Source of the DNA: Convolutriloba macropyga
Taxonomy: Eukaryota
Length of the DNA stretch: 64,000 nt
Direction: 5' to 3'
NCBI RefSeq assembly: GCF_964194025.1
Contig: NC_134471.1
Span: 31,496,001-31,560,000, forward strand
Within the stretch, counting starts at the first letter, position 1, and each line of letters begins with the position of its first letter. Below the pieces are notes generated by a model, which was not told the origin of the DNA, ran no database searches, and worked only from the letters and a program-made list of their open reading frames with translations. Below are positions 3,187-42,440 of this stretch, piece after piece. The translations under genes and the position numbers were made by a program.

Positions 3187-3402
3187 NNNNNNNNNNNNNN
3201 NNNNNNNNNNNNNNNNNNNNNNNNNNNNNNNNNNNNNNNNNNNNNNNNNNNNNNNNNNNNNNNNNNNNNNNNNNNNNNNNNNNNNNNNNNNNNNNNNNNN
3301 NNNNNNNNNNNNNNNNNNNNNNNNNNNNNNNNNNNNNNNNNNNNNNNNNNNNNNNNNNNNNNNNNNNNNNNNNNNNNNNNNNNNNNNNNNNNNNNNNNNN
3401 NN
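3187..3402. other. Assembly gap (N run)
   Basis: Run of N. Confidence 1.
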
Positions 3403-3513
3403 TGCTCAACAGCAAGTGTCAGCGCAAAACAGACTTGCTCCAGGTCAATTTCAAGGTGAGAACATCCGACCAGCTCTACAGAAATTTCCTGGAAATGACA
3501 GATCTGCTCAACA

Positions 3514-5949: not shown

Positions 5950-8900
5950 AATTGCTCTCAAAAAGCACGAAGTTTGTAGCAATTATATTAGTCCTGTCGG
6001 TCTTTTTTTATGCGATTTTTCGCTTGACCGATTTTTCGTCTGACACTTTTGGCTTTTCGTCCTCAAAAACGGGACATTCAGGTAGCGCCCAGCGGCCATT
6101 AAATGCTCTTAGAGCCTTTCAGCTCTGTTTCAACTCAAACTGTTTTGGAGACTCATTTGTATACTTATGGTGTGAAGGGCGGTTCTTAGAGTTTGAAGAC
6201 AACCCCACTGTTGACCACCCCCCCCCCCTATTGCCCCCCTATTGCCCCCATCCCCCCCACCGCGCTGTTGCCTCCCCACCCCAGTGTTGCCCCCTCAATC
6301 AGCCCCCTTTTTTTAGGTTTTTAAAAAGGTTACTGCGTAGTTTCTGGTGGTAATTTTAATGGTTTCAACATTTTACCATCACGAATTGCACATTTTTTTT
6401 TTTGACAAAAACGTTCATTTTTTTTCAAATTTTTTAACATTTTGTCCCTCTTTTAGGTTTTTCCAGACCCAATAGCCAAAAAACATCCTATGGGGTTTGA
6501 TAATAAGTTACTGACAAGTTTTTAATGGTAAGGGAATAGTTTTCCAACTTTTTTATGTCACTAATTTTAGAAATCTTTTTTAAATTTTGTTTTTTTTTCA
6601 AGTTTTTTGAAACTTTTTGTCGTTTTTCAGATTCTTTCAGCCTTAAGAGCAAAGTAACCTCATCTAGGGTTTGCAAATAGGTTTCTGGATAATTTTTAGA
6701 TTAAGTGGAACGTCTTGCAATATTTAAACATCACAAGTTTTATCAAATTTTTTAACATTTTTTGCCAGTTTTTTCCAATTTTTTTAAAATTTATACTTAT
6801 TATTCCAATTTTTTGAGCCTCAAGAGTCAAAAAAGCCTCCGATAGTTTTTGATAATAAGTTATTGTAAAATTTATGTTAGTGTTGGATTAATTTTCAATT
6901 TTTTATTATCAAGTTTTAGCAATTTTTTTTAAAACTTGCAAGTTTTGTTGAAGTTTTTTGATTTTTTGTTATTTTTTGGGCTGCTCTAGCCTCAAGGGCC
7001 ACTGAACTTCCTCTAGGGTTTGATAATATGTTACTGCATAGTTTATTGGTGAAATAGAATGTTCTTGGAGGTTGTAATATCACGAAATTAATCAATTTTG
7101 AAAATTATTTGCAATTTTTTCATGTTTTTGAGTTTTTTCCGGCAACAGAGGCCCTGGGACCTCCTCCAATTTTTGATAATAGGCTGCTGCATAGTTTCTA
7201 GAGCTAATGGGATTGTGATCAACAGTGATCAAGCGTATGGATCTTTATGAGCCAGTGAAACTATTTCAGGTTTTAAACAGGGATCATGGATAGTCTCATG
7301 AGACAATGTAATGGTTCTTAAGATGTCAAAGTCTTGAATTTTAGCGAGGTTTATATACAACAAGAAAACAATATGTGTTGTTTTCATCTCAATTGCAGTG
7401 ATTATAAATCTAATTGAGAAATTCAACTCAGTTTCTAAGAATATTATCTGCTGTTTGCTTTCGCAATCTTTTAGAGACTAGAATGATGACTTTTTATGGA
7501 ATTTGACAGCTTTTTCTGCTTTTTGAGCCTGTAAGTATTTTGACCATCCTAATTATTTCGGATTTTCCTAAAATTACCAACGGTTTTCAATAATATAGGT
7601 TTTGCTGCCTTTTGTTTCTCTGGATGACTATGGTTTAAATTTCGCCAATTTTTAGATCAGACAAATTAGATGGTTAAATACAAAAGAGAATGGCTTCCGC
7701 AGTTTTCACGGTTTTTTTGTGAAGTTTCAACGCTTCGCGTTGCATCCAGAATTCTTCTGGCTATGTTTTTAAGATCTGTTCAAATATTTTTATAACTTTG
7801 AAGTCATATTGGAGTAGTGATTTTGGTCACGCCGAAAAAGGAAATGGAGTGAAAAAGCGAGTGGTTTTGCGGTGTGAAATTTTTTCGCTCTAATTTTGAA
7901 GTAGAGTGATAAAACGGTGTTTGAACAAAAATACGTTTTCAGGGTAGGTCGAAGGGTAGGACGAAAATAAAATCTGTTCGACGAAATTGAAAAACATAAA
8001 AGGAAAAGTGGTTTTTTTGTTCACATTTCACTTTGACTTTTACTGTTTTTTCGATTTTCTGATCGGATTTTTTTTCTGAATGGTTTTTCCAATCCTTTCA
8101 CTCATCATTCTGGTCCTTGTTTTTTTATTCGAACAAAATTTCTTTTTCTCGCTAGTGGTTTTTTTCACATTGACATTTTGACATTAACTTTGTTTTTTTT
8201 ATTTTATCTGATTTTTTCAGAAACGGTTTTCGCAATTCACTCACAGTCGTTCTAGGTAAAGTTTTTTTTGTTTAGTCAACGAAAATTCTTTGAATTGTAC
8301 GTCAGTACTTGTCCTGCTATGTTTTTTACTATTCAAAGAATTTAAATTGTTTTGTGGCGCTGTCTTTTTCTTTTTTTTAAGATCTGTTCACACATTTTCA
8401 TGATTTTTGAAGTCAAATTGGAGTAGTGATTTTGGTCACGCCGAAACAGGAAATAGAGCAAAAAAATGAGTCGCTTTGCGGCGTAAATTTTTTTCGCTCT
8501 AAACTTAAAGTAGAGTGAGAAAACGGTGTTTGAACAAAAATTCGGTTTCTCGGTAGTGGTTTTTTGTTCACATGTGGCAATTTCACTCTAATTTTTACTG
8601 TTTTTTCGGATTTTTGGATCGAATTTTTTTCTAAATGGTTTTCATAATCCATTCACAGCTCATTCTATGCCTAGTGATTTTTTGTTTTTTTTTGTTATTT
8701 TTTGATCTGATTTTTTTTATATCACCCAGAGTCCATTCCAGGTCTAGTTTTTCTGTTTAGTCAATAAAAATTCTTTGAATTGTACGTCAAGACTTGTCCT
8801 GCTATGTTTTTTTTTTCGTCGAACAGAGTTTTGTTTCATCCTACCCTGACTTCTTCGAATTGACTTTTTCAATGACTTTAGTGAATTTTACTGCTTTGCA

Positions 8901-9335
8901 GTGAAAATTTGTGGTCGTGACATCATTTCTGCTTTTAGTTCAATTGCTTGACTTTCTTCACTCCAAAAAAGACTTCTGAACTCCTTTATGGAGTTTTAAA
9001 TTTTATGAACATTTACTAGTTAAAGATCAATAGTGTGCATCTAAATAGTGCGAAAATTTTTTCAGTATTGTTCTTTTCGGAGTTTAACGACCATTACTAT
9101 CCAACCAAACTTTTTAACTCTCGGAGACGGGTTACTTGACATAAATTTTGAGACAAAAAATGGTTTTGATTTCTTTATTGCCGAGTTCAAAACTTTTTAA
9201 TTTTGACTTTTTCAGCTTTTTTTATGATTTATTTATTCACAGGTTAGAAAACGAGAAGTTGCAGTGTTAAATCAAACCAACGAAGATATTTCTCCTTCGG
9301 TTGTAGTTCCTTTCCTTCTCTTTCTCGTTCACGTT

Positions 9336-9372
<37 letters not shown>

Positions 9373-9425
9373 GATTCCGCACTTCAGCTGCTGTTATGTG
9401 GCGTATTGTCAGCATCTGTGATCCT
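5950..9425 (+). mobile_element. Family A Helentron/DINE-like element carrying a 1.7-kb internal segment
   Basis: Family A 5' end at 5950 and ~175-bp units to ~7230. The family A 3' module (gaagttgcag..., (CT)n at ~9338-9369, gttgattccgcacttcagctg) lies at ~9250-9425. Confidence 0.5.
7352..9051. repeat. Direct repeat, copy 1 (includes an extra diverged ~600-bp internal duplicate)
   Basis: Nearly identical to 9955-11124. The segment 7770-8375 is a diverged duplicate of 8378-8800. ORFs 8413..8652 and 10407..10646 translate almost identically. Confidence 0.9.
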
Positions 9426-9499
9426 CATTATCAATGAGCTATAGTTGAAATGTTTTTTATCATAAATGATCTAACAGGCACTTTTAAGAAGCCATTTTT

Positions 9500-9720
9500 A
9501 ATTGTTCTCAGAAGCAATTTGTAGCAAATATAATAATTATGTTTGTCTTTTATGCAATTTTTCGCTCGTCCAATTTTTGTCCGACTCATTTGACTTTCGT
9601 ATTCAGAAACGTGATAAACAGGTAGCGCCCTGACGACACTAAACCATGGATAACTGTTGACGAAATCAAACGCTCGCCAGTTGTTTGAGAGCAGTTCTCC
9701 CGACGTTAGTCGGTTATGTT
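9500..9720 (+). mobile_element. Minimal (~220 bp) family A Helentron/DINE-like element with both ends
   Basis: 5' AATTGTTCTCA, 3' inverted TTTGAGAGCAGTT, hairpin CCGAC-GTTA-GTCGG (9700-9713), then TTATGTTTTT. Confidence 0.65.
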
Positions 9721-9954
9721 TTTTAGATTATGGTCATTTCTTTGGTTTACAATTGATTTCATCCCTCATAAGGTAGCACTGAGAGTGTGCTAAAAAGCAT
9801 TTTGCAACATTTCCACCTATTACTAATTGTTGCAATTTTTTGTGGCCCTGGTAAAGTTTTCAAACGTTTTTTTTTATTAGTTTTCTGTTGCTTATTTTTT
9901 TTCTATGGTTAATTTAATTTTTGAAAAAGTATGAAATCATTTTGTCTATAAGCA

Positions 9955-11124
9955 TATATACAACAAGAAAGCAATATGTGTTGTTTTCGTCTCAATTGCA
10001 GTGATTATAAATCTAATTGAGAAATTTAACTCAGTTTCTAAGAATATTATCTGCTGTTTGCTTTCGCAATCTTTTAGAGACTGGAATCATGACTTTTTAT
10101 GGAATTTGACAGCCTTTTCTGCTTTTTGAGCCTGTAAGTATTTTGACCATCCTATTTATTTTAGATTTTCCTAAAATTACCAAAGGTTTTCAATAACATA
10201 AGTTTTGCTGCTTTTTGTTTCTCTGGATGACTATGGTTTAAATTTCGGCAATATTTAGATCAGACAAATTAGATGGTTAAATACAAAAGGTAATGGCTTC
10301 CGCAGTTTTCACGGTTTTTTTGTGAAGTTTCAACGCTTCGAGTTGCATCCGGAATTCTTCTGGCTATGTTTGTAAGATCTGTTCACACATTTTTATAACT
10401 TTGAATTCAAATTGAAGTAGTGATTTTAGTCACGCCGAAACAGGAAATGGAGCAAAAAAGTGAGTGGCTTTGCGGTGTAAATTTATTTCGCTCTAAACTT
10501 AAAGTAGAGCGAGAAAATGGTTTTTGAACAAAAATCCGGTTTCTCGGTAGTGGTTTTTTGTTCACATGTGGCAATTTCACTCTGATTTTTACTGTTTTTT
10601 CGGATTTTTGGATCGAATTTTTTTCTAAATGGTTTTCATAATCCATTCACAGCTCATTCTAGGCCTAGTTTTTTGTTTGAATTAAATTTTCATTTCTCGC
10701 TAGTGTTTTTTTTTGTTCACATGCGGAATTTAGACATTGATTTTTTGTTTTTTTCTTATTTTTTGATCTGATTTTTTTAAATGATTTACTCAATTCACCC
10801 AGAGCCCATTCCAGGTCTAGTTTTTCTGTTTAGTCAATAAAAATTCTTTGAATTTTACGTCAGGACTTGTCCTGCTATGTTTTTTATTTCGTCGAACAGA
10901 GTTTTGTTTCGTCCTACCCTGACTTCTTCGAATTGACTTTTTCAATGACTTTAGTGACTTTTACTGCTTTGCAGTTAAAATTTGTGGTCTTGACATCATT
11001 TCTGCTTTTAGTTCAATTGCGTGACTTACCTCACTCCAAAAAAGACTTCTGAACTCCTTTATGGAGTTTTAAATTTTATGAACATTTACTAGTTAAAGAT
11101 CAATAGTTTGCATCTAAATAGTGC
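9955..11124. repeat. Direct repeat, copy 2
   Basis: Matches 7352-9051 apart from the extra internal unit. Confidence 0.9.
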
Positions 11125-17765: not shown

Positions 17766-18845
17766 AGTTATCAAAATTGACCGGTCTGTAACAGATGACA
17801 CAATGCGAGATCTCTTTATGTTGGCCAGTCAAACTTGACAAAAAATATAACAAATCGAAGACAAAGATATAAGCCGAAGACCTGCCTGTGCGATAAGACT
17901 CAATTTAAAATTTTTGGGGGGCTGAATAGTTAAATTAGTTAAACAGATTGTATAAGTGAACAAGCTTACACTGAGAAGTAATTAGTCGGGTTGAGCTGAT
18001 AGTTGATGAAGTTGTTCTTGTCCAGGCACGTCTTTTAACTGTAGTTAACTTCCTCGTAGTTAAGTTAATTCTTCTTTTTGAAATGTTGATAAGTTTTAAA
18101 ATTTCTTTTTTAAATTTAGAAGTTTGTTTATGCAAAAAAGGAAGCAGTTGCTTGCTGCTGATTTCTGGCTCTCTTGTGTCTCTCTAATTTTATTCCGTCC
18201 CACTTCGCTGAGAGAAACACTAAATTCTTCTCAACTCAGTTTGGGCCGATAGGGAGCAAATCACACACTCACGCTCATAGTGAGGTGCTGCTTAATTTTC
18301 CTATTGGCCGAGAAGGCAAGAGAATTAACTCTTTTTATCTCACGGAACAATTATTGAAATTCCAAAAAATATTAAAAGTCTAAAAAACAGCATCAATTAT
18401 TGATCACGTAGGCGCCTGCTTTCTGCTTTTCCCCTCTTGTAAAACCACAGCAATTATGAATTTCTTGGGGGCCTTTTTTGGGGATCTATTGTCTCTTCCC
18501 CTGAAGCAATCCGCTTCATCCTTATTGAACTTAGGGGAAGAGATCTGCATTGCAACTGTCAAAAGCAGAAGCAAATTAAATCAAAAGTAAGTGCGGTTAT
18601 ACAGGCCGCCTACGCTGAACAACGTACATTTTCTATCCTGGATATAAGCGAGGAGATCTAGATTTAAAGTTGTGTTAATATAAATAAGTCGAACTAAGTT
18701 GTTTAGATACTTCTGTACTGGTAGTCTTAACGAGCGTTAATTTGTTTAGCGCGCAGTGAAAGAATGGTTAATTAACGCCTAAATACGTTCGCCCTAATGC
18801 GTGATTAATTATTCGTTCATTTGTAACGGTTTTCGTAATACTACA
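17766..18845 (-). repeat. 3' LTR (1080 bp)
   Basis: Direct repeat of 38940-39933 (compare ORFs 18174 and 39281, MCLSNFIPSHFAERN...). The minus strand starts TGTAGTATTACG and ends TTTTGATAACT. Confidence 0.92.
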
Positions 18846-21651: not shown

Positions 21652-21990
21652 TTATACGAATGTTTTTTCGCAAAGGGGGCGCAATATGTAATCTTTTCGG
21701 CAAACTTTACAGAAGTTGAGGGGTTTCTGATCATTGTGATGAAACGTTTTTGCAACAGAATGTTGAAGCCTTGTTTGTTTGCAAACATCACATTGGAACC
21801 AGTTAAAGATTGAAAAGATAACATTAAGTTTAGAGCGTTTAGGGCAGAAGTCAAAACCCATATCTCTTATAACATTTTGATAACAGAGCAGACACATTAC
21901 GTGGGGTATTTTGTTAGGGAGGTTCTCGTGTAGTTTCTTGGAGACAATTGTGTCGCGTCTGCAGCATAGACAAATTAATGGGACCGGTTT
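21652..21990 (-). pseudogene. RING-like Zn-finger accessory ORF, paralog 2
   Basis: In-frame upstream extension of ORF 21652..21897: ICLCCRRDTIVSKKLHENLPNKIPHVMCLLCYQNVIRDMGFDFCPKR...FQCDVC...FCKVC...PLC. Confidence 0.6.
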
Positions 21991-22384
21991 GGATTCTTCA
22001 GTTTTGATTCCTTTGTCAACTTTATTCGTATTTGGGAGGGGATTTCGTTTAAACTATTTGAGGTATTGGTTGTTGAATATGTTGGGATTTGATTGTTTGA
22101 TTTATTACCAATGTACTTATTAACATCAAAAAGTTGAGAGGCATACTTATAACCACGACGAAAGCAGTTAAAAACAAAAATCAAGTATTGTTGCTGTAAA
22201 TAATGTGAAGGGTTTGTGAACTCAGTTTCGAATCGGAGGTTTTACCAAGGATGTTTTTGATCAATGGTTTGTTTAATTAAAGGTCATTTTGGGTTGGTAA
22301 AGGTCATACATTAACAACAATTTTATTTTCCAGGGGTGTAAATATATGAGATATCTGTGGCAAGTGAATAACTTTTTGATTTCT

Positions 22385-22570
22385 TGTTAGGAGTCACACT
22401 GGAAATAATAGCAATTACTAATAGTATAAATGGAAGTTACACAAATGGGACAGTTAGGTTTGCTCCAATAATTAAATAACTCATTTCTACAGGGAATACA
22501 CGCGAAATGGGGATTTTTTAAATTGACGGAAAAAGCGATAACAAATAGGGCATTCGATTTTAGGAGTTGA
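22385..22570 (-). pseudogene. RING-like Zn-finger accessory ORF, paralog 1
   Basis: ECPICYRFFRQFKK/NPHFACIPCRNELFNYWSKPNCPIC...FQCDS*; one frameshift. Confidence 0.6.
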
Positions 22571-22615
22571 GTCAGTTTGTAGTTGCTGAGAAAAAAATTT
22601 TCAAAATGTATCCCA

Positions 22616-25600
22616 TTATACTGACAAATCAGAGATATTTGGGTATGAGACTTCTAGTCCATGGTGTTCAAGTTCATTGGGGATAGTTACATTTAAATCT
22701 GCAATAGCAAAAAAAAATTCCAGTGTCGATCGTCTGGATAAATGTAATAATGATTTATGGTACCTGTGCTTAAGAACATATAAGTTATTTTTATACATGC
22801 TTTATAGTGTTTGTAACAAAAGGTAAACCATCTTTCTACTTTAAAAATTTTTAATTTTTCCTTACGAACGAACAAAATCATTTTGTTTTTGACAATTTGG
22901 TAGAAAACGAGGGAACAAGAACAAACTGATCGGGATACAAATGAATTAACAGGAAAGGAAAAAAAGAAGGGATAAAAAATGAGCAGGGAGAAAACTGTTT
23001 AATGAAGAGCGCCCAAGTGGGCAGTGCTCTTCGATATCAATGAGGGCTAGGAAGAATTCCCAGTGCGTCATTCCAATGGTGATTCGTGTAGTACCCTTGC
23101 ATTCACGTTTGTAGTCTGTATAATGGATAATGATACAGGCTTCAATCTCTCCGGTGGGAGTTTCAGTGAACGACCTCCCGAGGGACTCTACTTTAACTAG
23201 GCGGTTACCAAAATTGAACAGCATTATAGAAGATCTAAATTAAAAGGGATTTTGGTGCCATTTAACGCTTGGGATATTTTTATAAAAAAATGTCCAATAT
23301 GGGGAAGATGGTGTTAAAGTAATAGTGCCATCAGTCCAAGTATTTAAATATTCAAAATGTATTATTAGTTGTGGGATTACTCTGTTACTTTTTGTCGTGA
23401 CAAATGGTTTTTCAAAAATTGAAATTGTACAAGGCAGTTTTGGTATGAGAATATCTTTGCTGTTTTTAATTATTAATTGTGTCCAACTCGTTTTGACAAG
23501 AATCAGTTTTTGGCAGATCAAAAGAAATATTGTGAGGAACACAGTTTGGATTTTCTAGAATAAAGATGAAGAATTTCGCAATGGATTGAGAGAGGGTTAC
23601 TACTGTTTAAACCAAAGGTTTCACTTTGTATCTCTTTGAGTGTTACTAGCATGGTGGGAACAAGAGTTGGGTACGCATCAAAAGATCGTTGAATTTCGTG
23701 CAATTCTACAAATTTATTGTCAACTGCAAATATAACAGTTTGGAATGCTGGTAATTGAGCAATGTAGATTGGATGTCGAACTTCAAATATCGAGTTCTTT
23801 TTGTTAGCTAGAAAAATGGTTAATTCGGCGAATTGAGGATGGATTATGAAGATAGTTTACAGTCTATAAATATTGTCATAGGTTTTTTCACGAAAGTCAT
23901 TTTATTTATAGCAGAGACATTGTAGTTGTTTGTTAGTTCATTGTTTTTCCTTTCAAAGCTATGTATTGACGTAAGCTTATTTGAAAAAAATTAATGATAT
24001 AAAATTGTCAATTTTGGCTAAAAGCAGGATTATTGACAACGATTGCTATTAATAGATAATCCATCAATCGAATTCGCTTTAGCAAGATTGGAGTAGGTGA
24101 AAATTCGGGTAATAAATAGATGGACACAATTAGGATTAAAAAGTTGAAACTGGATTATAAGAAATAAAAAAAAACCAAAAGATTCCGCAAATTTCCCTCA
24201 AGGTTGAACTTATAACAGAATTCAAAATCTAGTAAGATTTTTCGTCAGGTACTTGAAACAATTTTCTATCCGATTCCAATGTTTACAAATTAATTATGTC
24301 ATCAACCAGGTCCCTTAACAATAAGAAATAATAAAAATTTGAATGCGGTACGTCCAGATCAGTAATGTCACTAAAATAGAACGATGCAACTCTAAGAGTT
24401 ACATTACTTCCTAAGGTAGAAATACTTGATGATACCATTTGTCCGGTGTATTGTCCCAATCTAACGAATAAAGCGTTAGGCTGTTCAATGAATTTGGGCT
24501 GCCTAACATATCGTCCTTGAGGTGTATCTGAAAAAGATGTTAATTAATTGGTAGAGTCTAACACATATAACTTTCATCAATTTTTGGGACAAACCTCCCG
24601 AGGGACTCTACTTTAACTAGGCGGTTACCAAAATTGAACAGCATTATAGAAGATCTAAATTAAAAGGGATTTTGGTGCCATTTAACGCTTGGGATATATT
24701 TATAAAAAATGTCCAATATGGGGAAGATGGTGTTAAAGTAATAGTGCCATCAGTCCAATTATTTAAATATTCAAAATGTATTATTAGTTGTGGGATTACT
24801 CTGTTACTTTTTGTCGTGACAAATGGTTTTTCAAAAATTGAAATTGTACAAGGCAGTTTTGGTATGAGAATATCATTGCTGTTTTTAATTATTAATTGTG
24901 TCCAACTCGTTTTGACAAGAATCAGTTTTTGGCAGATCAAAAGAAATATTGTGAGGAACACAGTTTGGATTTTCTAGAATAAAGATGAAGAATTTCGCAA
25001 TGGATTGAGAGAGGGTTACTACTGTTTAAACCAAAGGTTTCACTTTGTATCTCTTTGAGTGTTACTAGCATGGTGGGAACAAGAGTTGGGTACGCATCAA
25101 AAGATCGTTGAATTTCGTGCAATTCTACAAATTTATTGTCAACTGCAAATATAACAGTTTGGAATGCTGGTAATTGAGCAATGTAGATTGGATGTCGAAC
25201 TTCAAATATCGAGTTCTTTTTGTTAGCTAGAAAAATGGTTAATTCGGCGAATTGAGGATGGATTATGAAGATAGTTTACAGTCTATAAATATTGTCATAG
25301 GTTTTTTTCACGAAAGTCATTTTATTTATAGCAGAGACATTGTATACTGCTAAAAGCTCAAAACTTTGATTTTCGATTCTGACCTGTAAGTTTCTATTAG
25401 TTAAGTGGATCACAATTGCTGGTCTAGTTCTTTAAGCAAACTAATAGGATCAAATTGTGCTAAATAAACAAAATAGTTCCAATACAACAATTGAGGGGTT
25501 TAAATGACACTATCGTTTTCCTGCGTGTCCCAAAGTTCGAACTTTATAACCATTTGAGGGAAAATGTCTCCGTGATTTTCTTCAAATGTTTTCTTTATTT

Positions 25601-26260
25601 GATAGATTGATCAAGTGGATCTTGAAACAAAAAGTACATTAATTGAGGCGTATTAGTTGTTTGTTAGTTCATTGTTTTTCCTTTCAAAGCTATGTATTGA
25701 CGTAAGCTTATTTGAAAAAAATTAATGATATAAAATTGTCAATTTTGGCTAAAAGCAGGATTATTGACAACGATTGCTATTAATAGATAATCCATCAATC
25801 GAATTCGCTTTAGCAAGATTGGAGTAGGTGAAAATTCAGGTAATAAATAGATGGACACAATTAGGATTAAAAAGTTGAAACTGGATTATAAGAAATAAAA
25901 AAAACCAAAAGATTCCGCAAATTTCCCTCAAGGTTGAACTTATAACAGAATTCAAAATCTAGTAAGATTTTTCGTCAGGTACTTGAAACAATTTTCTATC
26001 CGATTCCAATGTTTACAAATTAATTATGTCATCAACCAGGGCTTTAACAATAAGAAGTAATAAAAATTTGAATGCGGTACGTCCAGATCAGTAATGTCAC
26101 TAAAATAGAACGATGCAACTCTAAGAGTTACATTACTTCCTAAGGTAGAAATACTTGATGATACCATTTGTCCGGTGTATTGTCCCAATCTAACGAATAA
26201 AGCGTTAGGCTGTTCAATGAATTTGGGCTGCATAACATATCGTCCTTGAGGTGTATCTGA
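22616..26260 (-). pseudogene. Tandem array of paralogous ~75-aa 'W-x-F-F' accessory domains of unknown function
   Basis: Units at ~22616-22881, 22946-23224, 23240-23480 (=24644-24900), 23500-23740 (=24920-25160) and 25430-25640 share an alignable pattern; 26024-26260 may be a more distant member. Confidence 0.6.
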
Positions 26261-26529: not shown

Positions 26530-28639
26530 TGTGCTGTAAGGATGATAATTACTACGTGGTAAAATTGATTGGTGCTCTGTGGAGCCGATGGTCTCGTTTC
26601 GCTGGAAAATACCGATGTAAACAAGGATAAGATACAAAGATTTTAAGTTGCTCCTTATTAAATTTTCGAAAAACCCATTGTTTCGTTGGATATTCTGTGG
26701 ATTTCGAATGCTCTAATGATAATTACAATTACATCAGTTAAGAAATTTATTCACAAGAAACGAGCAAAATAAACTCCAATTTTTTCCAGATAAAAAGTGA
26801 TGATTCCAAAAGTGTATGTGAAACCAGAGAGTCTAGATAAATTTGTCTATTAATGCCCATTGCTGACGCATAGATATCTTTTTGTGAATAGTCTATGCTT
26901 CATCCTTCTAAAAATTCTCTGAAAATTTTTATCAAAACAGATTTTGATGCTTCCGAGTGCAAGATATTGTCCCAAAAAGATTTAAGTTGATTTGGTGTGT
27001 AACTTACGTCGTAATTCGTAACCGGTAAATTTTGAAACAGAACTAACAACTCTTGAATAGAATACTTTTGGCGGTTGTAAAGGAACAAGTGCTGGCATCA
27101 AATGGTACCATGAATTTTCATTATCAATATCTAACTGGTAGGCATTTTTGTAGCCTCCAACACAATCTACTTCGATTGCAAATGGATAGCTTTTTCGAGT
27201 AATTGGGTCGACGAATATTGTCCAGTCACCATAGTGAATAGGAATCCTATCATAACACTGGTCAAGAAGCCCAAGTGGTGATTTTTGTTCTGGACAGTTG
27301 TACAGCCGACCTATGCTACCATCTGTGTCTAAAAACATCGAGCGGTTGCCGGTTAACATGTTTCGAGCTAAACGATTAATTTGGATAGCCAGCATGAGTA
27401 TCATTTGTTTTTGAGTTCGATCAAGTTCGCATTGCTCTATAACCAAACTTTTCCATGCTTGTTTTAATGGTTTGTAATTATGGTATATGACAAAATCCAT
27501 TTTTACCGCAAGGTTAAGATCATAGTCCAACTTGTCTTGTCGGATAATCGGATCTGGTCATCTGAAGGCTTCCTATTAAATCCATTTACACTTAGGCTGT
27601 TGTCAGGATCAATAAAAAGTTTAAAGAAAAAAACGTTTAATTTTTGACTTATAAGTTTTGACAGTCTTCATATTAAATCCGCCTTTATAAGAAACATAAA
27701 AAGAATCTGAATTTGTTCTGTAAGTAAACGCTGGTTTTCCACACACCCTTTCCTTTTGATCAACTACTCTAATCTTTATGTCCATTTCAGCAGGAGAATA
27801 CGTTCCTAGTCCATCATATGGCGTCTCCGGTTTTTCATCACTCAATATGAAATATTGTACGTTACCAAGTTCGTTTTCATGTTTTAGCATTTTTGCATTT
27901 TGTGAAAGCCTTTAGTAACTATACAATTTTCCGGTTCCTACCAATTGCATGCAAAAGGGTCGAGTGATGTCAAATGACAACCTCCTTCTGAGAGGGCACA
28001 AGGAAGTTTTAACCCTTGACTGTAATAGACAGATCTGTCATTAAGATCAAAATCGAGTAGAAAAAAGTTTAATTTTATTACGGTTAACAAAAGATGTTGA
28101 TGAGTCACCTTCAAGATCAACTCCCTGGTTTTTATAGGAGACCGTTTTCATTGTATGTTTTATGTCTACTTCCATATCATTATCATCAAATTCGGTAACA
28201 GTAATTTTACAGTTTTATTGGCAATTAGACATCGTTCTGGTGAAACAATAATGTCGTATGTTATTATTGGGGCGTTGTGTACAATTGATGAATGGCAAAA
28301 CATACCACAATTATAATGAATGAGCACCGCAGTGACTTTGCACATAAGAGCTTTAACAAAGGCATGATAAGAACGCTGATAATGAGTTACATGTGTATCA
28401 ACCATCTGAATAATTTCGGGTGTGATTTTGCCAGGAGAAACTTGTGTTAGAGCATACATTTTATTTTCTTTCATTTTAGAACAGTCATAGTGAATGACCC
28501 TAAGTTTCCTAAACACATCATTATTATCCTCAAATGGACGTTCAGTAGCGTTAATAACAATAAAAAGAGTACAACAGTAGAAAAGACTTACAACTAAATA
28601 AGGAAAATAGAGTTTATCGAAATAAAGAAATCTTTTCAT
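26530..28639 (-). pseudogene. env: env, chuvirus-G/gB-type (class III) glycoprotein-like, frameshifted
   Basis: Signal-like N-terminus MKRFLYF...VVSLFYCCTLFIVINA; HYDC; CKV...NCGMFCHSSIVHN...SPERC; LPC.LSEGGC; EQCELDR...LYNC...CYDRIPI...FVDPITR...EVDC; C-terminal TM-like TFGIITFYLEKIGVYF...TDVIVIIIRAF. Confidence 0.8.
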
Positions 28640-28918
28640 CCTGGTATTTTTAGCTCCTCAAGTCGAGAGTTAAGGCCATGAGTTGTAGTTAAAGGCACGT
28701 CCAGTAATAGTTGACTGATTTTATTGTTACCTAAAACAAAATCAAGTTAATCCGGCTTGATAGCGTGATGGCGGCTTGGCCACGCGACTAGAAGTTCGCC
28801 TATTGTTGTTATTTTCTAAAGTTTGCAAACTAGGTCCTTATTCCGATCTATTAGGGCGGGGAGGACTTAAAATTTGGTCTAATGGTAATCTGGAATTGTT
28901 CTGTGGGCAAGGAGTTGA

Positions 28919-30315
28919 GTAATTATGATATATGACAAAATCGATTTTTACCGCAAGGTTAAGATCATAGTCTAACTCGTCTTTGTCTAAGTGTTCCCAT
29001 GCAACAAAACCATTGTCGGATGTTCGGATCTGGTCACTTGAAGGCTTCCTATTAAACCTTTTTACAATAAGGCTGTTGTAAGGATCAATAAGAAGTTTAT
29101 GAAAGAAAAGTTTAATTTTTGACTGATAAGGTTTGCCAGTCTTCATATTAAATCCGCCTTTATAAGAACCATAAAAAGAATTTGTTCTGCAAAAAAAATT
29201 CTGGTTTTCCACACACCTTTTCCTTTTCAACAACTACTCTAATTTTTATGTCCATTTCAGCGGGAGAATAAGTTTCTGGTCCTCCTTAGGGCGTCTCCCG
29301 TTTTTCATCACTCACTGTGAAATATTTTACGTTACCAAGTTAGTTTTCATTTTTTTAGCATATTTGCATTTTGTGAAAATCTTTTAATAACTTTACAACT
29401 CTCCGGTTCCTCCCAATTGTATGCAAAAGGGTCGAGTTATGTCGAATGACAACAGCCTCCTTCTGAGAGGGCACACGGAAGTTTTAATCCTTGACTGTTA
29501 TAGACGGATCTGTCATTAAGATCAATAGCGAGTAGAAGAAAACTTAATTTTACCACGGTTATCAAAAGATGTTGATGAATCAATTTCAAGATCAACTCCC
29601 TAGTTTTTATAGGAGACTGTTTTTATTCCATGTTTTATGTCTACTTCCATGTCATCATCATCAAATTCGGTAACAGTAATTTTCCAGTTTTATTGTCAAT
29701 TAGACATTGTTCGGGTAAAACAATAATGTTATGTTATTATTGGAACGTTGTGTACAATTGATGAATGGCAAAACATACTACAATTATAATGAATGAGCAC
29801 CGCAGTGACTTTGCACAAAAGAGCTTTAACAAAAGCATGATATGAACGCTGATAAAGTTTTACATGAGTATCACCATCTGAATATTTTAGGGTGTGATTT
29901 TGCCAGGAGAAACTTGTTTTAGAGCATACATTTTATTTTCTTTCATTTAAGAACAGTCATAGTGAATGACCCTTAAATTGCTAAATACATCATTATTATC
30001 CTCAAAAGGAGGTTCAGTAGAGTTAAAAACTATAAAAAGAGTACAAAAGTAGAAAATACTCACAACTAAATAAGGAAAAGACTCACAACTAAATAGTCCT
30101 TATTTAGTTGTAGAAAAGACTCATAACTAAATAAGGACTAAATAAGGAAGAGAGTTAAGGCTATGAGTTGTAGTTAAAGGCACGTCCAGTAACGCCTATT
30201 GTTGTTATTTTCTAAAGTTTGCAAACTAGGTCCTTGTTCCGATCTATTAGGTCGGGGAGGACTTAAATTTAGGTCTAATGCTATTCTGGAATTGTTCTTT
30301 GTGCAAGGAGTTGAG
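28919..30315 (-). pseudogene. env: Diverged tandem duplicate of the pol 3' tail and env 5' half
   Basis: Aligns with ~27474-28918 with scattered substitutions and complementary indels. Confidence 0.85.
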
Positions 30316-30769
30316 CTTCTTGTTCGACTACCAATGGGCAGGTTTGTCTGGACTAAAGGGTGGCTGTCACGACCACCTGATTTTGCTTCATTAAACCCAA
30401 AATCAAAATTGGTAGGAGTTCGGTCAGCGTCTAAGTTCTGCACGGCTGAATCTCTTCGTATGAAATTCTCCACGAGGAAATGTTCGGTGTTAGTTGGGCT
30501 TTGGAAGGAGAACTTAGTCAAAGGACTGTTGAGTTTATTCAATTGAGTTGTCATTAAGTTATTATAAAATGTATCACAATTATTTTTATCTATACCATAT
30601 TCTAGGGTTAACTCTGGTATGTTTTCAGTAGCTGTGTAATACTCAACTAGGTGATTTCTATGAGCAACCTATCCTGGTAGCTATCCGGGCAACTTTCCGG
30701 GCAACTTTCCGGGTTGTTATCTAAAGTTATTTCTTAGTTGATTTTGGTTAATTTTTTAGCTACAGTATG

Positions 30770-31620
30770 AGGACCTGATCTCAGCTCGTGTAGTTTTTGT
30801 GACGTTCCTAGCTCAATTTGATGGTTTTCCTTTCAAAATTGTCCAATCTCCAGTGGCTTACCTTACTTGTGTTTATTTCTGTGTTTATGTCTGCGGTTAT
30901 TATTTTCTAGGCTCTTTTCATAAGCGTTGTTATATATTTGTTTAAATTCATTTTCTCGCATGAGCAATGAATTGCTGACAGTTGGTTTTAGGAGTTTGTC
31001 AATTTCTGTGTTTTTGGAAGTTTGCAGGGCATGCCTGTGAAGAGGCAGGTCTTTGCAAAACTCGGAGGAGCATGTTAGTTGTGAATTTCGTAGAAGTCCT
31101 AACTTAAGTGACAGAGGTATCTGTGGTTTTTTATCCGAACACAATTTCATAAGGTGAGATTCCAGTACTAGCATTTAGAACCGCGTTACGAGAAAAAGCA
31201 AATTTTGGTGCCAGTTCATCCCATTGACCTTGAGCATGTTCTTGAAAAATTCGGAAATGTGCTCCTAAATGTTTGTTTTGGATCTCGACTTTACCATTAG
31301 TCCAAGGCTCATAAGCAGTTCGAGGTGCGTGTGTTATACCTAAGTCATGAATATAACTCGCAAAATCTTGGTTCATGAATGCCGAACCCTTATCATACAC
31401 AAGTTTTTGCGGTATTCCAAAAGACAAGATTAACCTTTCTAAAGCTTCTAAATCTTTCTTCAGGTTTTCAATACATTTATACATTCCGGGCCATTAAAAA
31501 AATCACTTTACTTTAGCAAGTGTTTTATCTAAATCTGAAATACCTGACAGTTTGCAATGAGCTAACTGAGAAGCTTCAAAAAACAATGAAAGCGGTACAC
31601 ATATTTTCAAAAACTCAATA
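30770..31620 (-). pseudogene. pol: Integrase (internally deleted)
   Basis: WPGMYK fused to FGIPQKLVYDKGSAF...RTAYEPWTNGKVE...STGISPYEIVFG; GPY-like RSGPHTV near 30770-30790. Confidence 0.9.
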
Positions 31621-32449
31621 TCCGGTTCGTCTGTTTGTTATTGAATACATAATATGTTATCTACAAAACTCAATTTTTCAAAGTTATTATTATACGACAT
31701 TATGGCTTTAAATTGTCGAAATTCAATTTTCTTTTCATCTTTGTTATTGATCGTCCTTAATTGACGAATTTGTTGTAGCACTGGGTCTTATAATTGTTCT
31801 TGACAAATAACCGATGTATTTCAATCAACTTCCTTAGAGAAGGATGTCAGTTTATCGATGAGTTCTCATCATTCTTTTATTTTTGGATTTCGGGGATTTT
31901 TTTGCTAATTCGATTTTATCTATACAAGTACTATTCTTCACGAGAAAATTTTTATTGTATTCTATAGGGAACCTATACTCCAAGTCTGTTTTATTAGTTT
32001 GACCAATTTAGAATTTGTCAAAATTTAATTCCGTCGACTGGTTCTCACTGAACAACTCAAACTCCAAAATTGGGTAAAATTTTTGTTCGGTTATCTGTTT
32101 CTCGAGATAGGAATGAGTTTTTGTATAGTAATCAGACATTTCATCCTCCTCCTGTTCAAATACAGGGGTTGTTTCATGTTCGCCGTGACGCCTGTAGGGG
32201 TTAATTGATGAACCATACGATAAATCTTCCAAAAAATTGTTTTTTGAGCAAATTCTGTTTTGGTGGTTGTCGTGTTTTTGCATTACCATTTTGTCGTTTT
32301 CGAAATTGAATTTGTCGATACCCCTTATGCTTGGTTTTAGGATTGGAAAAAAATCATCTGCTGGTTCCTTTTCATTATCACGCAAAATGAAACTTTTTTC
32401 CTCATTACCATGCTCGTCGTAAAAACTAATGTCTTTGGTATCTTTTTGT

Positions 32450-33985
32450 GTTGAAGTTGATACATAGGATGTCGGGAGAAGCTTAACTTTTGAAATTGTT
32501 TTGAAATTGAGAGATTACTAACTGGTATCTGAAAAACCTGCGAGAGAGTTTTCCTCTTCTACCCCATAGATACATTAAAAGCTTATGGTCTGTGTACTCT
32601 TATACGGGATGAGGAGAACCAATTAGGTAATGCTCATAAGTTTGTAATGCATATCTTACACCGCAAAGTTTGGTGCTGTGGTGCTCATTTTTTGTTCCTC
32701 TTTATAAGTTCTAGAGTTAAAAGACACTATTCGTTTCCCTTATGGAAATTCGTGAACGAGAATTGAGCCTACTCGTATAGAAGAAGCGTCTACATGCACG
32801 TGGAAAGGCTGTTTAGTATCAGGTATTGCAAAGACATATTCGCTAATCCTGGTTTATATGTCATTATACGATTTTTCGTGTTCCGTTGTCCAGACAAATT
32901 TAGTTTTTGTGCGGGTTAGGTCATAGAAGGGATTGCAGTCAAAGTGCAAATTTCTGATGAACATGCTGTAGAATCCTAAGCAACCTAGAATTCTCATGAC
33001 ATTGTTTTTTTCAGGCGACTTAAGTGCTTTTAAATCCGTTACTCGCTTCTTGACTGGCTGTATTCCATCTTAACCTACTACGTGTCCCAAGAATTGTACT
33101 TTCCTAACGAAGAATTTAGTCTTTTCGGGTTGAGCTTTCAACCCTGATTTCCTTAAGAATTCGTAGTAGTTGTCAATTATTTCAAATATTTCGGTTTGGT
33201 CTTGAACTTGCATGATAGTGTCATCAATGTAGATTATGGCGTGTTTTTTTTCTGATTAGTGGTGCACAGTGAATAGCCAGTATACGATTGAGGAAATTAG
33301 GTAGACCGCATAGTCCATAAAATCCGAGTTCAAATGTGTATTGCTTTGGACCAATTACAAAACTTACCAGCTGTTTGGTTTCTTCGGTTAGAGGGACCTG
33401 GTTATAAGCTGACCAAATATCACAGGTTGTGAAGAAATTACCTTTCAGTCTAGTTAATGGGCTTTCTATTGGTTTGTGTGGCCATGAATATCGACTCAGA
33501 TCTGTTATTGAACTCAAATGTCGGGCGTCTATAACCAGTTTTACTGTGTTCCCCTTGGGTAAGATTATGATTGGATTAATAAATTGTGAACCCATTTCTT
33601 TATTGTTACCCAATTTCCGGATTATACCTGTTTTACACAGTTGTTCCAAAAAATTTTCTAGTTTTTCCTGAAAATGTAATGGTACTTTGGATGGTCTCTG
33701 TTTTGTTAAAGTTGAATTAGGTAAAAGTTTGACATGAAATTTTTGATTTATCTTTCCAACATCGTATTTGTGTTGAGAATAAACGTCCTTATTATTAGTT
33801 CTCATTAACTTGTCTAAGCTTTCGTCATTGGTTTCAGCTTGACTGAAATCAAACCTTTTGAGAAATGTTTGGTCGGTTTTGTCAAATCTGTTTTCTTTGG
33901 GAAGATCAACGGGTCCGATCTTTTCATCAGTTGATTCCAATTGCGGCTTTAGATCCTTGAGGTCGTCGCTAAAGTTTAATTCCAA
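32450..33985 (-). pseudogene. pol: Reverse transcriptase and RNase H
   Basis: NPIIILPK...KLVIDAR, TTCDIWSAYNQVPL, GFYGLCGLP, AIIYIDDTIM (~33215-33240), RNase H PFHVHVDAS (~32785-32810). Confidence 0.95.
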
Positions 33986-34461
33986 TTCGTAGTTGTTGGT
34001 AAAATCTTGCTGTTTAAGTCGCTTTTCTGTTTGCTTTTGTTTTTCAGAAGTTTTGTTGGATTCGAAGAATTTTTACTTTTTGAAATTTTTGCACCTTGTT
34101 TTTCACATGGAATATTTGATCCCAATTAGTGTCACTATACATTAGGTTGTTTATGGTTGCAACGTTGTCAACTACAGAAAGTTTTGGGTTTTGTCGAATT
34201 TCAATGTCTTCTAAAGTGTGCCCAGTAGGACCCTTTTGGATGACAACCTTGTTGTTTTGGGGATTGCTTAGCATTATTGGTAATTCTTCTTCTTTTCTAA
34301 AACACTGAACATTGTAAGTATAAATTCCTTGAGCCTGTAGTTCACTTCCGATTACAAAGGAGGTTCCTTTTTTGAAAAATTCATTTGGTGGTCTGTCTAA
34401 TTGATATTACGCGAGCTGATTTTTGTGCTCATGGTAGCTGCTAATCAAGAGTTACAATTTT

Positions 34462-34860
34462 TTAGGAACTAAAGTACGGAAAGCTTTTCGTTTGGTATCT
34501 AGATAATTTGACGTCTACATCAGTGTAAGCTTTTAAATCAATTTTTGGAGTTCTTATGTCCATGGATTTCAGTGTAGATTCAAGCAAGTCCATTCTCAAC
34601 AAGTTCGAGTTGCTACCATTTTTGGCTGAAGCACATGCGGTAAATTCGACTTGATACTTTCCTTCAATGTTGACGGAAGTTTTAAAAGTAGTTTGACATA
34701 GCACTTTTAGTTTCTCGCCATTAACCGCTAAAGTATGATTTTTTGAAGCCTTCATCTCAATATGCCGTGTTTTGCATATTTGAATGTAAGTTTGGTAATT
34801 AATCAAAGAGCTTGATGCTCCTGTGTTCAATAAAAACTGTGTTTCTAAACCGTTATTTTT
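34462..34860 (-). pseudogene. pol: Aspartic protease
   Basis: FLLNTGASSSLIN (LDTGA with catalytic D replaced by N) ... NLLRMDLL. Confidence 0.85.
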
Positions 34861-35199
34861 ATTTTTGTCTCGGAGGGATTGATATAAATTAATAAAAAAT
34901 TGTGAATAATTTGCTTTGTTTTCAGTAGTGCTTATGTACGGAGATCTGTCTAGTTTAAGTACTTGTCGTTGTAATTCTCATCATTGTAATAGCCTCTGGG
35001 AGTTTCACTAGTAAAGTGGACTCGAGGGTTTCGCCCTTCACTGTTATCTCTTGAATGAATAGCATTGTTTTGCCTAGTAGGTGTCCTATCACGGTCATGG
35101 ACTCTACTCCTCTCACGATATTGATTATCTGATCTTGAAGGTGCGTTGCTTTGTCTATCGCTACTATTTTGCCTATTGCTATCTCTATAGGAGTTGTTT

Positions 35200-36260
35200 C
35201 AATAGTAATTTTGTCGTTCCTGTGATCGGTCATCGTAAGATGATGATCGGTAATTGTCTTGAGGAGTTTGATGGGTACGGTGATCGATGTCGGTAGTCTG
35301 ACCTAGAGTTGTTTTGATAATTCGATTGATTTTGTTTAAAACTATTTCTGTGTCTGTCCCTAGAAATTTGATTGTCAAAATCGTTTGCTCTGGAATGTAG
35401 TTGACCTGGTGAATGGTTCCGACTGCGTTTATAATTATTTGTTACCCGTTCGCGATGTTGAGGGCTTCCAATTTTCGTTTTTATAATCTTTGTACTTAAA
35501 GTAAAATGCTATTGTGTGACCAGAACGTTTGCAAAACTTGCAGAATCTAGGTTTTGTTTAAATCTGAGATTGTTACTGTTGTAAGTAGCGTTTATTTTGT
35601 GATCTTTCATGAGATTGGGAATTTCTGTGAGTTGGTTCTTTAACCCTATAATTTCTTTTTTTATTGTCAATACTACTTGAGGCGGTACCCTTGAATTCAC
35701 TCCTAACAAAAAAACTTAAGTCCTTAGTCTCTACATGATCCTTTAATTGTTGCCATGTTGTTTTTAGGGTTTCTATTAACAACTGATGTGCCTTTTGCAT
35801 AAGTGCAGGTGGCGTTAGTTGTCTTGAAAAGTACTCCATACACTTGGCGGTATGCTGGTCGTTGTTAAATTCTGGATCTGGCCATCTTGTTTCAACTGCT
35901 TTTGATACTCGTTGAGTATAGCTTTTTATCAACTCATCTGGCTGCCTTTTATTAATCTCCACTTCACTCCTTTTCCTGTAATTATCTTTTGCATCAGTGA
36001 AACGGTCAATGAAATGATTTCTAACTTCCATGCTAAAGCTGGGGCTAAGGTTTCAAACTATTGGGCTGCTGGCCTACGTGAAACCCAACCGAAAAACGCT
36101 TTTTGTCTAGCGTCGAATGCTGCTTACGAGTCAGCATCAGCCGGATCTTTTTTTTCTTAGCGAGAATTGGATTTCTCTTTGTATTAAATTGAAGAATTCC
36201 GGGGCATCTTCAGATGGATCTTAAACTGTAAATGAAGAGAATAACCTGTCTTAACCGGTT
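35200..36260 (-). pseudogene. gag: gag (capsid-like region, CCHC knuckle, R/S-rich tail)
   Basis: DPSEDAPEFF..., ORF 35573..36031 (FIDRFTD...RQPDELIKSY..RV), knuckle CKFCKRSGHTIAFY at ~35500-35545. Confidence 0.8.
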
Positions 36261-38940: not shown

Positions 38941-39933
38941 GTTATCAAAATTAGGTCTCATAATCTTAAGGCAAAGATATATGCCTAAAACCTGTCTGTG
39001 TGATAAGTCTCAATTCAAAATTGTTGGGGGGCTGAATAGTTAAATTAGTTAATTAGATAGTTTCAATAAATAAGCTTACACTGAGAAGTAATTAGTCGGG
39101 TTGAGCTGATAGTTGAAGTTGTTCTTGTCTAGGCACGTCTTTTAACTGTAGTTAACTTCCTCGTAGTTAAGTTAATTCTTCTTTTTGAAATGTTGATAAG
39201 TTTAAAAATTTCTCTTTTAAATTTAGAAGTTTGTTTATGCAAAAAAGGAAGCAGTTGTTTGCTGCTGATTTCTGGCTCTTTTGTGTCTCTCTAATTTTAT
39301 TCCGTCCCACTTCGCTGAGAGAAACACTAAATTCTTCTCAATTCAGTTTGGGCCGATAGGGAGCAAATCACACACACACGCTCATAGTGAGGTGATGGTT
39401 AATTTTCCTATTGGCCGAGAAGACAAGAAAATTAACTCTTTTTATCTCACGGAAAAATTATTGAAATTCCAAAAAACATTAAAAGTAGGCGATCTCGTAG
39501 GCGCCTGTTTTCTGCTTTCCCCTCTTGTAAAACGACACAAATTATGGTTTTCTTGGGGGCTTTTTATGGGGATCTTTTGTCTCTTCCCGTGAAGCAATCT
39601 GCTTCATCTTTATTGAACTTAGGGGAAGAGATATGCATAGCAACTGTCAAAAGCAGAAATAATTTGAATCAAAAGTAAGTGCGGTTATACAGGCCGCCTA
39701 CGCTGAACAACGTACATTTTCTATCCTGGATATAAGCGAGGAGATCTAGATTTAAAGTTGTGTTAATTTAAATAAGTCGAACTAAGTTGTTTAGATACTT
39801 CTGTACTGGTAGTCTTAACGAGCGTTAATTTGTTTAGCACGCAGTGAAAGAATGGTTAATTAACGCCTATATACGTTCGCCCTATTGGGTGATTAATTAT
39901 TCGTTCATTTGTAACGGCTTTCGTAATATTATA
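38940..39933 (-). repeat. 5' LTR (994 bp)
   Basis: Direct repeat of 17766-18845, immediately followed on the minus strand by the PBS. Confidence 0.92.
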
Positions 39934-40073: not shown

Positions 40074-42440
40074 AATTGCTCTCAAACGAAGTTTGTAGCA
40101 ATTAGTTTAGTCCTTTCGGTCCTTTTTTATGCAAATTTTCGCTCGATCGATTTTTTGTCTGACCTATTTGACTTTTGGTGCTCAAAAACGGATTAAAACG
40201 TAGCACCAAGTGGGCTTTAATTGTCCTTAGAGCTTTTCAGCTCTGTTTCAGTTCAAAATTTTTCAAGATTTTAACAGCACGTTGCAAAAGATTTTAACAG
40301 CAAGTTGCAAATTGAAAGTTGCAACTTTCAATTTTTTTTTCATTTTTTGTCATTAATCGGGGTTTTTCAGCCTGAGGGATCAAAAAACTTACTTAGGGGT
40401 TTGATAATAGATTGCTGCTTAGTATCTGGTGGTAATGGAATGGTTTTCAACATTTTTACATCACGAGTTTTTGCAATTTTTTTTATAAAACTTGCAATCT
40501 TTGTTCTTTTTTTCAACCTCCATTGTCATTATCTAAGTTTTTTCTTTTCCAGCCCCAGGAGCCAAGAAACCTCCTATGGGGTTTGATGATAGGTTACCGA
40601 ATTTTTCTTCTAGTCGTGGAATAGTCTTTAATTTTTTTATATCACAATTTTTTTTTTGATTTTTTGATAAAACTTGCAATTTTTAAGTTTTTTGAATTGT
40701 TTTTTTTTTTCATTTTTTAGGCTTATCCAGCCTCAAGAGCAAAAGAACCATCGAAACTGATTAAGGCTTAAAAAAGGAGACTTGATAGTTTTCTGAGACA
40801 ACGAAATGGTTCTGAGGACATTAGAATCACGAATTTTAACAAAATTTTGTTAAAACTTGCAATTGTTTCCAAAATTTTTGATCATTTTTGTCCTTTTCTA
40901 ACTTTAACGATCCTTGCTGGCCAAGGAGGCTTTTTAAGTCTTGCAGATGGGCTTAATGACAGAAATCCAGAGACAAAAAACTTTTGGATAATTTTCTTCA
41001 CTGCAAAATGCGGAAATAATTTGTACGAATTTTGCACTTTCAGTTTTTTCTATTTGGTTTAAGTACTAACAAGGCAAGAAAACTAGAAGTTGCAGAGTCG
41101 AATCTCATCATGCAAAAAAATACCTAACTCTCTTTTTCTCTCTCTGTCTCGCTCGCTGTGTGTGTTGGTTGGGATTTCTGTCCTTCTCTTTCGTGTTCAC
41201 GTTTTATTTCTCGCACTCTCGCTCCCTCTCTTTCTCCTGAATTCTTTTTGTTGATGCCGCTCTTCAGCTGATGTTATGTGGCGTGAACTCATCGGCTTGT
41301 ACCCTAACCTCACAACCCTTCAATCAAGTTCAAGCTAGCCTCACTAAGCAGTGGCTAGGCACTGACGAAGCCTACCGCTCGCCTGTAGTTTGAGATCAAT
41401 TTTTTGTCATTTCTTAAGCTTATCCAGCCTCAAGAGCCAAGAACGTCCTCTAGGGATTGATAATAGGTTACTGTACAATCTCTAGATGCAATAGAATGTT
41501 TCTGAGGATCTTAACATTACCAGATTGAGCATTATTTAAAAAAAAATTGAAATTTTCGAGTTCTTTTAAATTGTTTGTCTCTTTTTAGGTGTCTCCGTTT
41601 TCAAGAGCCAAAAAATATATGGTTTGATGATTGGTTATTGCATAGTTTTTAGATATGATGGAATGTTTTTCAAGATTTTAATTTTACAAATTCAAAATTT
41701 TTAAAATCGTTTGCATTTTTTTCAATTTTTTAAAACATTTTTTAAGATTTTTCAATTTTTTCGTACCAGGGCTCAGGGAATTCCTCGCAGGATTGATAGT
41801 AAGCTGCTGCTGTAGAGTTAATCAAATGGACACGAGTTTAAACATTCTTTTGATGAAAAATAATTTGAAATTAATTTTGAAAAGTTATTATTCTCTGAGT
41901 TTATGAGCCAATGAAACTGATTAAGGCTTAAAAGAGGAGACTTGATAGTTTTCTGAGACAACGAAATGGTTCTGAGGACATTAGAATCACGAATTTTAAC
42001 AAAATTTTGTTAAAACTTGCAATTGTTTCCAAAATTTTTGATCATTTTTGTCCTTTTCTAACTTTAACGATTCTTGCGGGCCAAGAAGGCTTTTTATGTC
42101 TTGCAGATGGGCTTAATGACAGAAATCCAGAGACAAAAATGTTTTGGATATTTTTCTTCACTGCAAAATGAGGGAAAAAATTCGTACGAAATTTGCACTT
42201 TCAGTTTTTTCTATTTGATTTAAATACTAAGAAGGCAAGAAAACTAGAAGTTGCAGAGTCGAATCTCANNNNNNNNNNNNNNNNNNNNNNNNNNNNNNNN
42301 NNNNNNNNNNNNNNNNNNNNNNNNNNNNNNNNNNNNNNNNNNNNNNNNNNNNNNNNNNNNNNNNNNNNNNNNNNNNNNNNNNNNNNNNNNNNNNNNNNNN
42401 NNNNNNNNNNNNNNNNNNNNNNTTTCGTGTTCACGTTTTA

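Follow-up and report, generated by a model that had tools for sequence, protein, structure and literature searches.

What is encoded by the row of short open reading frames (ORFs) that follows env in a decayed retroelement, and why would such an element keep it? The question is raised by 64,000 nt of the Convolutriloba macropyga genome (assembly GCF_964194025.1, contig NC_134471.1, positions 31,496,001 to 31,560,000), hereafter the window, in whose numbering coordinates are given. The element in the window is a decayed, env-bearing Ty3/gypsy long terminal repeat (LTR) element of ~22 kb, lying on the minus strand. The reading that we favour, though tentatively, is that five of these ORFs are paralogous accessory genes, produced by old tandem duplication and retained by selection, which would encode binders of host proteins with separate targets.

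Homology, classes and constraint of the five units

An original prediction, made from the letters alone, had placed in 22616..26260 a tandem family of a ~75-amino-acid (aa) domain with a W-x-F-F pattern. The five minus-strand peptides on which it rested are present as written and in the place indicated, and they do belong to one W-x-F-F family; the size needed correction, as the units measure 76-94 aa and share a core of ~60 aa. The interval holds the family as claimed, with the exception of its upstream ORFs (F, G and H), which are not members. The five units are given below in their order after env, with their length when intact, the database proteins assigned to each class (of 61 candidates, 50 were retrieved when all five units served as queries) and the largest cluster at 90% identity.

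25410..25639, minus strand: family unit E, 76-80 aa intact; here a frameshift near the start and one in-frame stop; 16 database proteins, cluster of 119
24885..25155, minus strand: family unit A, 94 aa intact; here frameshifted, start not intact; 12 database proteins, cluster of 10
24644..24876, minus strand: family unit B, 77 aa intact; frameshift near the start, stop overlapping the start of C (TAATG); 4 database proteins, cluster of 38
22999..23224, minus strand: family unit C, 76 aa intact; core intact, tail frameshifted; 9 database proteins, cluster of 116
22616..22881, minus strand: family unit D, 88 aa intact; frameshift after W-x-F-F, stop overlapping the next start (TAATG); 9 database proteins, cluster of 147

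A profile built from unit C and its 9 relatives (9 of 11 candidates) was run blind over 3198 six-frame tiles of the window. Above a background whose best score was 5.7 bits, it recovered B (18.4 bits), a second B (16.1), D (13.8) and E (8.2). The broken A of the window, at just 2.9 bits, was not recovered, a result that lends something to the explanation that the units resemble each other by the chance of AT-rich, hydrophobic translation; likewise, acceptor-like AGs upstream of some starts lend something to the related explanation that splicing joins the units, as exons, into one protein. Chance is rejected by three further tests. Specifically, in profile-profile comparisons against shuffled controls, as had been proposed with the original prediction (46 of the 50 proteins, four fragments or read-throughs being dropped), 9 of 10 family pairs exceed all 40 column shuffles; the pair B-D is equalled by 2 of 40 shuffles, and A-E is marginal. 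Profiles built by leaving one family out find B, C, D and E at 24.5-40.6 bits over a background of at most 9.6, missing the frameshifted A of the window (4.2 vs 7.1 bits). In addition, 11 full-length database A proteins score 16-29 bits, the shuffle maximum being 14.0 (1980 reported of 2000 shuffles). As for the exon reading, intact units all begin with a Met and end at a stop of their own, and the acceptor scores fall inside the null range. We conclude that chance and exons are largely refuted as explanations, and we regard the two together as scarcely credible.

The lack of DNA similarity among the units was rightly noted in the prediction (0 of 10 pairs, best blastn E 0.086), and paralog protein identity is 17-33%. 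A tree of 37 rows and 67 columns resolves little beyond the classes, which are joined by diverged relatives with supports of 97/93 for A, 97/97 for B, 99/96 for D and 98/85 for E, and more weakly for C (84/83). Since the diverged relatives fall in the same classes, the expansion predates the split of these element families. The proposed old tandem expansion, kept at the protein level, therefore stands on the low identity, the absence of DNA similarity and the persistence of the classes; what it had not foreseen is that some of the repetition in the window is recent DNA duplication, described below.

Each unit is a small separate protein. The 50 database matches are nearly all single-domain, of 71-94 aa, and HMMER, run against 1.84 billion representatives, found 43 clusters at E <=0.001, the longest representative measuring at most 162 aa; this settles, in favour of separate ORFs, whether intact copies are ORFs, spliced exons or one polyprotein. 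Read-through proteins retain the order of the array: B into C in P0051 and P0053, A into B in P0066, H into A in P0070 and P0079, and E into H in P0094. Of 59 lengths of the relatives' source contigs, 13 recur across ORF types, which suggests indirectly that the ORFs move as a group.

Across 38 aligned members, F19 is present in all 38, the start Met in 37, the W in 34 and the last F in 32, and the conserved residues make up the hydrophobic core. At the protein level, and not as dN/dS (the ratio of nonsynonymous to synonymous rates), the sequences show selection on the units while the lineage was active.

Domain identity and predicted fold

The domain was described at the outset as unrecognised, and so it proves in the libraries searched: Pfam, NCBIfam, PHROGs and PDB sequences (three profiles), together with a phage tblastn, returned nothing credible for the family, and the ESM Atlas gave no match at >=0.9. 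Foldseek, the structural comparison suggested with the prediction, searched PDB and BFVD without a match at E 0.001. The predicted fold combines an SH3-like beta-barrel and its long hairpin with a hydrophobic helix that bears W-x-F-F, and the model of unit C has a predicted local distance difference test score (pLDDT) of 91.7. Another fold and another origin were tried and rejected. The strand-helix pattern had brought a PC4/Pur-alpha fold to mind, which turned up in low Foldseek rows only and was absent among the VIA matches listed; as a source of the family, the C-terminal SH3 region of the element's own integrase was not matched by the family profile.

The predicted fold resembles domain I of EF-P, EfpL and eIF5A, with which the units may share the barrel and the long hairpin, at a root mean square deviation (rmsd) of ~2.2 Å over 50-52 residues. 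The units could on this basis be a captured, diverged domain I, acting as a decoy for modifying enzymes or as a ribosome binder and tuning host or element translation. Unlike domain I, they have an extra helix and no modified-lysine motif: the columns at the hairpin tip are variable, with lysine in at most 6 of 38 members, whereas the EF-Ps compared keep a conserved motif there. They also have no further domains, since the proteins end after the helix and a short tail, at 76-94 aa, with the C-terminal OB-fold domain or domains absent. When the family was compared with 22 bacterial EF-P/EfpL sequences, a set containing no eIF5A, the match probability was <2%, and 36 of 150 block shuffles did as well. 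We judge this origin unlikely. A long shot, fainter still, is the fuller scenario in which an animal LTR retroelement captured the eIF5A N-terminal domain, which lost its hypusine site and gave rise to five mimics aimed at ribosomes or enzymes; read from an operon-like RNA by chained stop-start reinitiation, these might promote that reinitiation themselves or rewire host translation.

The barrel would also suit a chromatin or nucleic-acid binder of Sul7d or chromo type, aiding transcription, integration targeting or escape from silencing. Here the Z-score is lower and the rmsd worse than for EF-P, and no chromo Pfam match was found in the 45 or 31 members scanned. Net charge spans -5 to +4 across the units (E -5, C -2), which speaks against a common basic surface. 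Such a binder is improbable, if marginally the least so of the alternatives considered here. A conserved core with variable net charge fits a scaffold with variable binding surfaces.

The post-env array and the element around it

Following env on the minus strand, the order is F, G, E, H, A, B, C, D, a RING-like ORF and a zinc-finger-like ORF. The features outside the family are as follows.

38968..39931, minus strand: 5' LTR, alignable part, 91.9% match to 17858-18843, followed by a TGG stretch resembling a primer-binding site (PBS) at ~38940; ends read directly
35200..36052, minus strand: gag-like region, broken, proposed from position and translation only
30640..34977, minus strand: pol, broken, with protease, reverse transcriptase (RT) and integrase in Ty3/gypsy order, from Pfam
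28919..30079, minus strand: older, incomplete copy of the env 5' region, 86.6% identical to 27474-28607; PF24664 E 5e-5
26600..28657, minus strand: env, Monjiviricetes-type fusion glycoprotein, broken, 3' end approximate; PF24664 E 3e-9 and 2e-11
25952..26233, minus strand: ORF F, 94 aa intact, not a family member; database homologues in clusters of 72 and 41
25640..25925, minus strand: region G, a probable degraded ORF with a hydrophobic start, matched by the read-through tails of P0109 and P0111
25174..25413, minus strand: ORF H, 79 aa intact, a second unknown family, overlapping the E stop by 4 nt
23173..24593, minus strand: tandem duplicate of 26322-24593 without a ~310-nt E segment, 99.0% over 671 nt and 99.3% over 753 nt
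22387..22616, minus strand: RING-like ORF, broken; zf-C3HC4_3 E 0.002, under the curated Pfam cut-off
21652..22053, minus strand: Cys-rich zinc-finger-like ORF, from its translation; weak Pfam match, E 0.4
17858..18843, minus strand: 3' LTR, alignable part, preceded by a purine-rich tract

ORFs F and H were tried as a sixth and a seventh member of the family and rejected, as their profile scores lie within the shuffle range and they are also unlike each other; by eye, both show a strand-strand-helix pattern. ORF F has a splice-acceptor-like site 23 nt upstream, whose score is at the 95th percentile and inside the null range. For region G, a stand-alone homologue was not recovered. A homologue of H is the N-terminal part of P0070 (E 1e-5), diverged and fused to an A-type unit. 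In P0077, unit D reads into the same Cys motif as that of the RING-like ORF, as judged by eye.

The recent duplicate contains a second F and G, part of H, a second A (23736-23466), a second B (23457-23225) and the start of C, and leaves an 18-codon C stub at 24644-24593; A and B thus occur twice in the window through a 99%-identical DNA copy. Because both A copies share the same breaks, the duplication postdates decay. It may be an assembly artefact.

Comparison of the window with itself pairs the LTRs at 38968-39931 and 17858-18843 (91.9% identity, 986 nt), and no target-site duplication was recognised at the element ends. In pol, Pfam matches are PF13975 (E 3e-4), rve (E 5e-6) and RVT_1 (E 7e-10); the RT has just two PDB matches, 4ol8 (RT/RNase H) and 7q5b (a Ty3-G Gag-Pol chain), and Pfam detected no RNase H in pol. 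The gag-like region is without a Pfam match. Downstream of pol, PF24664 (Monjiviricetes_fusion) exceeds its cut-off in two env segments. Older internal duplication at 30315-28797 (minus strand), in which 1.2 kb of env match at 86.6% and a repeat of 123 nt at 93.5%, suggests repeated template jumps or recombination in the element. From the PBS-like site to gag, ~2.8 kb (38900-36100, minus strand) hold short open frames and a 160-nt internal repeat, with no Pfam match of note. The stretch from env to the 3' LTR is ~7 kb long and the five-unit array occupies its first half; further small ORFs, Cys-rich, membrane-like or basic, follow toward the 3' LTR (22053-18971, minus strand), where three additional stop-start overlaps lie at 21897, 21381 and 20330. 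An Rfam search across the element and a tRNA scan gave nothing credible.

Outside the element, dispersed degenerate repeats at 1183-1666, 6316-7214 and 40326-41726, spaced at ~170-180 nt with 60-75% identity, are possibly decayed coding repeats. Two more clusters (7352-11094 and 53603-58127) consist of direct repeats of several hundred bases each at 83-99%. Runs of N at ~3190-3410, 42270-42430 and 52130-52280 indicate that the assembly is gapped or masked.

Expression, proposed role and known systems

TAATG overlaps join B to C, D to the RING-like ORF and an upstream frame to E, and E overlaps H by 4 nt. Among ATGs in the region, 11 of 98 are preceded by TA. In the in-frame upstream extensions of database C or E proteins, I, L or V precedes Met in 6 of 6 cases (background 24%; P0070, P0079 and P0088 were left out of the count as ambiguous), which is compatible with the same overlap in these relatives. 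UAAUG and AUGA are described termination-reinitiation arrangements, the retrotransposon SART1 included (the part of PMC5972666 consulted). As in SART1 and in influenza B segment 7, which uses UAAUG reinitiation, consecutive ORFs here share stop-start overlaps; the array differs in repeating them along a chain of ORFs and in showing no UGGGA upstream of the six starts searched, and its coupling is putative. A splice acceptor for each ORF was considered and rejected on the acceptor scores given above. Reinitiation on a polycistronic RNA is probably the mode of expression, judging from this anatomy.

In the role that we tentatively propose, old tandem duplication would have placed five paralogs behind env, where they were kept while the lineage was active. 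A single polycistronic 3' RNA, possibly spliced, would yield the separate proteins by termination-reinitiation at the overlaps. Each paralog would bind its own host target as a decoy or adaptor, and the adaptors would work with the co-expressed RING protein, blunting host restriction. The hydrophobic core with its spread of charge, the retention of five classes and the coupling of D to the RING-like ORF favour protein-binding modules with different targets.

Several points weigh against this proposal. A sign of constraint, the agreement of relatives with their class at 212 of 392 paralog-conserved sites as compared with 253 of 823 other sites, is inflated because the relatives were found with the family profile. 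That the relatives sit within LTR elements is something we infer. The RING match falls short of the Pfam cut-off. The A-B junction has a gap of 8 nt and the C-D junction one of 117 nt, neither with an overlap; the latter is pyrimidine-rich, and H and A are likewise separated, by ~18 nt. The two B-type extensions are both without I, L or V, as expected from the gapped A-B junction. Finally, the UGGGA motif of the termination upstream ribosome-binding site (TURBS) is found at 0 of 6 starts within 90 nt upstream, a motif not needed in every described case according to the part of PMC5972666 consulted.

The units could instead be housekeeping parts of the element cycle (particle assembly, RNA export or env trafficking) with element-encoded partners. 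Their conserved order is in keeping with this, as is their site 3' of env, which matches that of the regulatory genes of foamy-type viruses in the portion of PMC5210030 available, and a nematode LTR element is reported to encode an RNA-export protein (PMC10309623). However, five divergent paralogs with variable surfaces better fit diversification against several targets, and the Ty3/gypsy elements with gag, pol and env, which occur widely, are described in terms of those three ORFs (PMC13524379). We therefore consider housekeeping quite unlikely, and return to host-directed binders. So read, the array suggests that an invertebrate-type retroelement and its host are engaged in an arms race over several targets. 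The partners of the five small proteins, whose predicted fold is confident, could expose host restriction factors, and the chained overlaps lend themselves to the study of repeated reinitiation in animals; the eIF5A link, if true, would be a new kind of translation-factor mimicry.

Neither the family nor a similar paralog array was found in the parts of the open literature searched, and the element may be listed in a supplement, a subscription paper or a repeat library. The main text of PMC13524379, as far as it was available, has no such array under accessory, extra-ORF, downstream-of-env or RING. Within the same limits, the errantiviruses described there, env-carrying Ty3/gypsy elements, resemble the window element in their LTR-gag-pol-env plan, Ty3-type RT, Monjiviricetes/gB-type fusion protein and many copies; the window element differs by adding, after env, ~7 kb of small ORFs that include the five-member array. 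According to the parts of PMC6431247 and PMC5408684 at hand, planarian Burro, plant Ogre and rotifer ORF3 elements share the size of >20 kb, the extra coding capacity, the ubiquitin-related or RING cargo and accessory ORFs sometimes 3' of env. Theirs, however, are recognisable domains in a polyprotein or in one or two ORFs, whereas here the cargo is many separate mini-ORFs, among them an unknown family that has expanded internally. Fish foamy-like endogenous retroviruses, with genomes of >17 kb, likewise have several accessory ORFs 3' of env that are unknown and under purifying selection; unlike the window element, they are retroviruses with large accessory ORFs, with no tandem paralog array described in the portion of PMC5210030 available.

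In conclusion, accessory ORFs after env were already known, and what appears new is the internally expanded, selected small-protein family in an operon-like row: a real and apparently undescribed family within a known kind of element.
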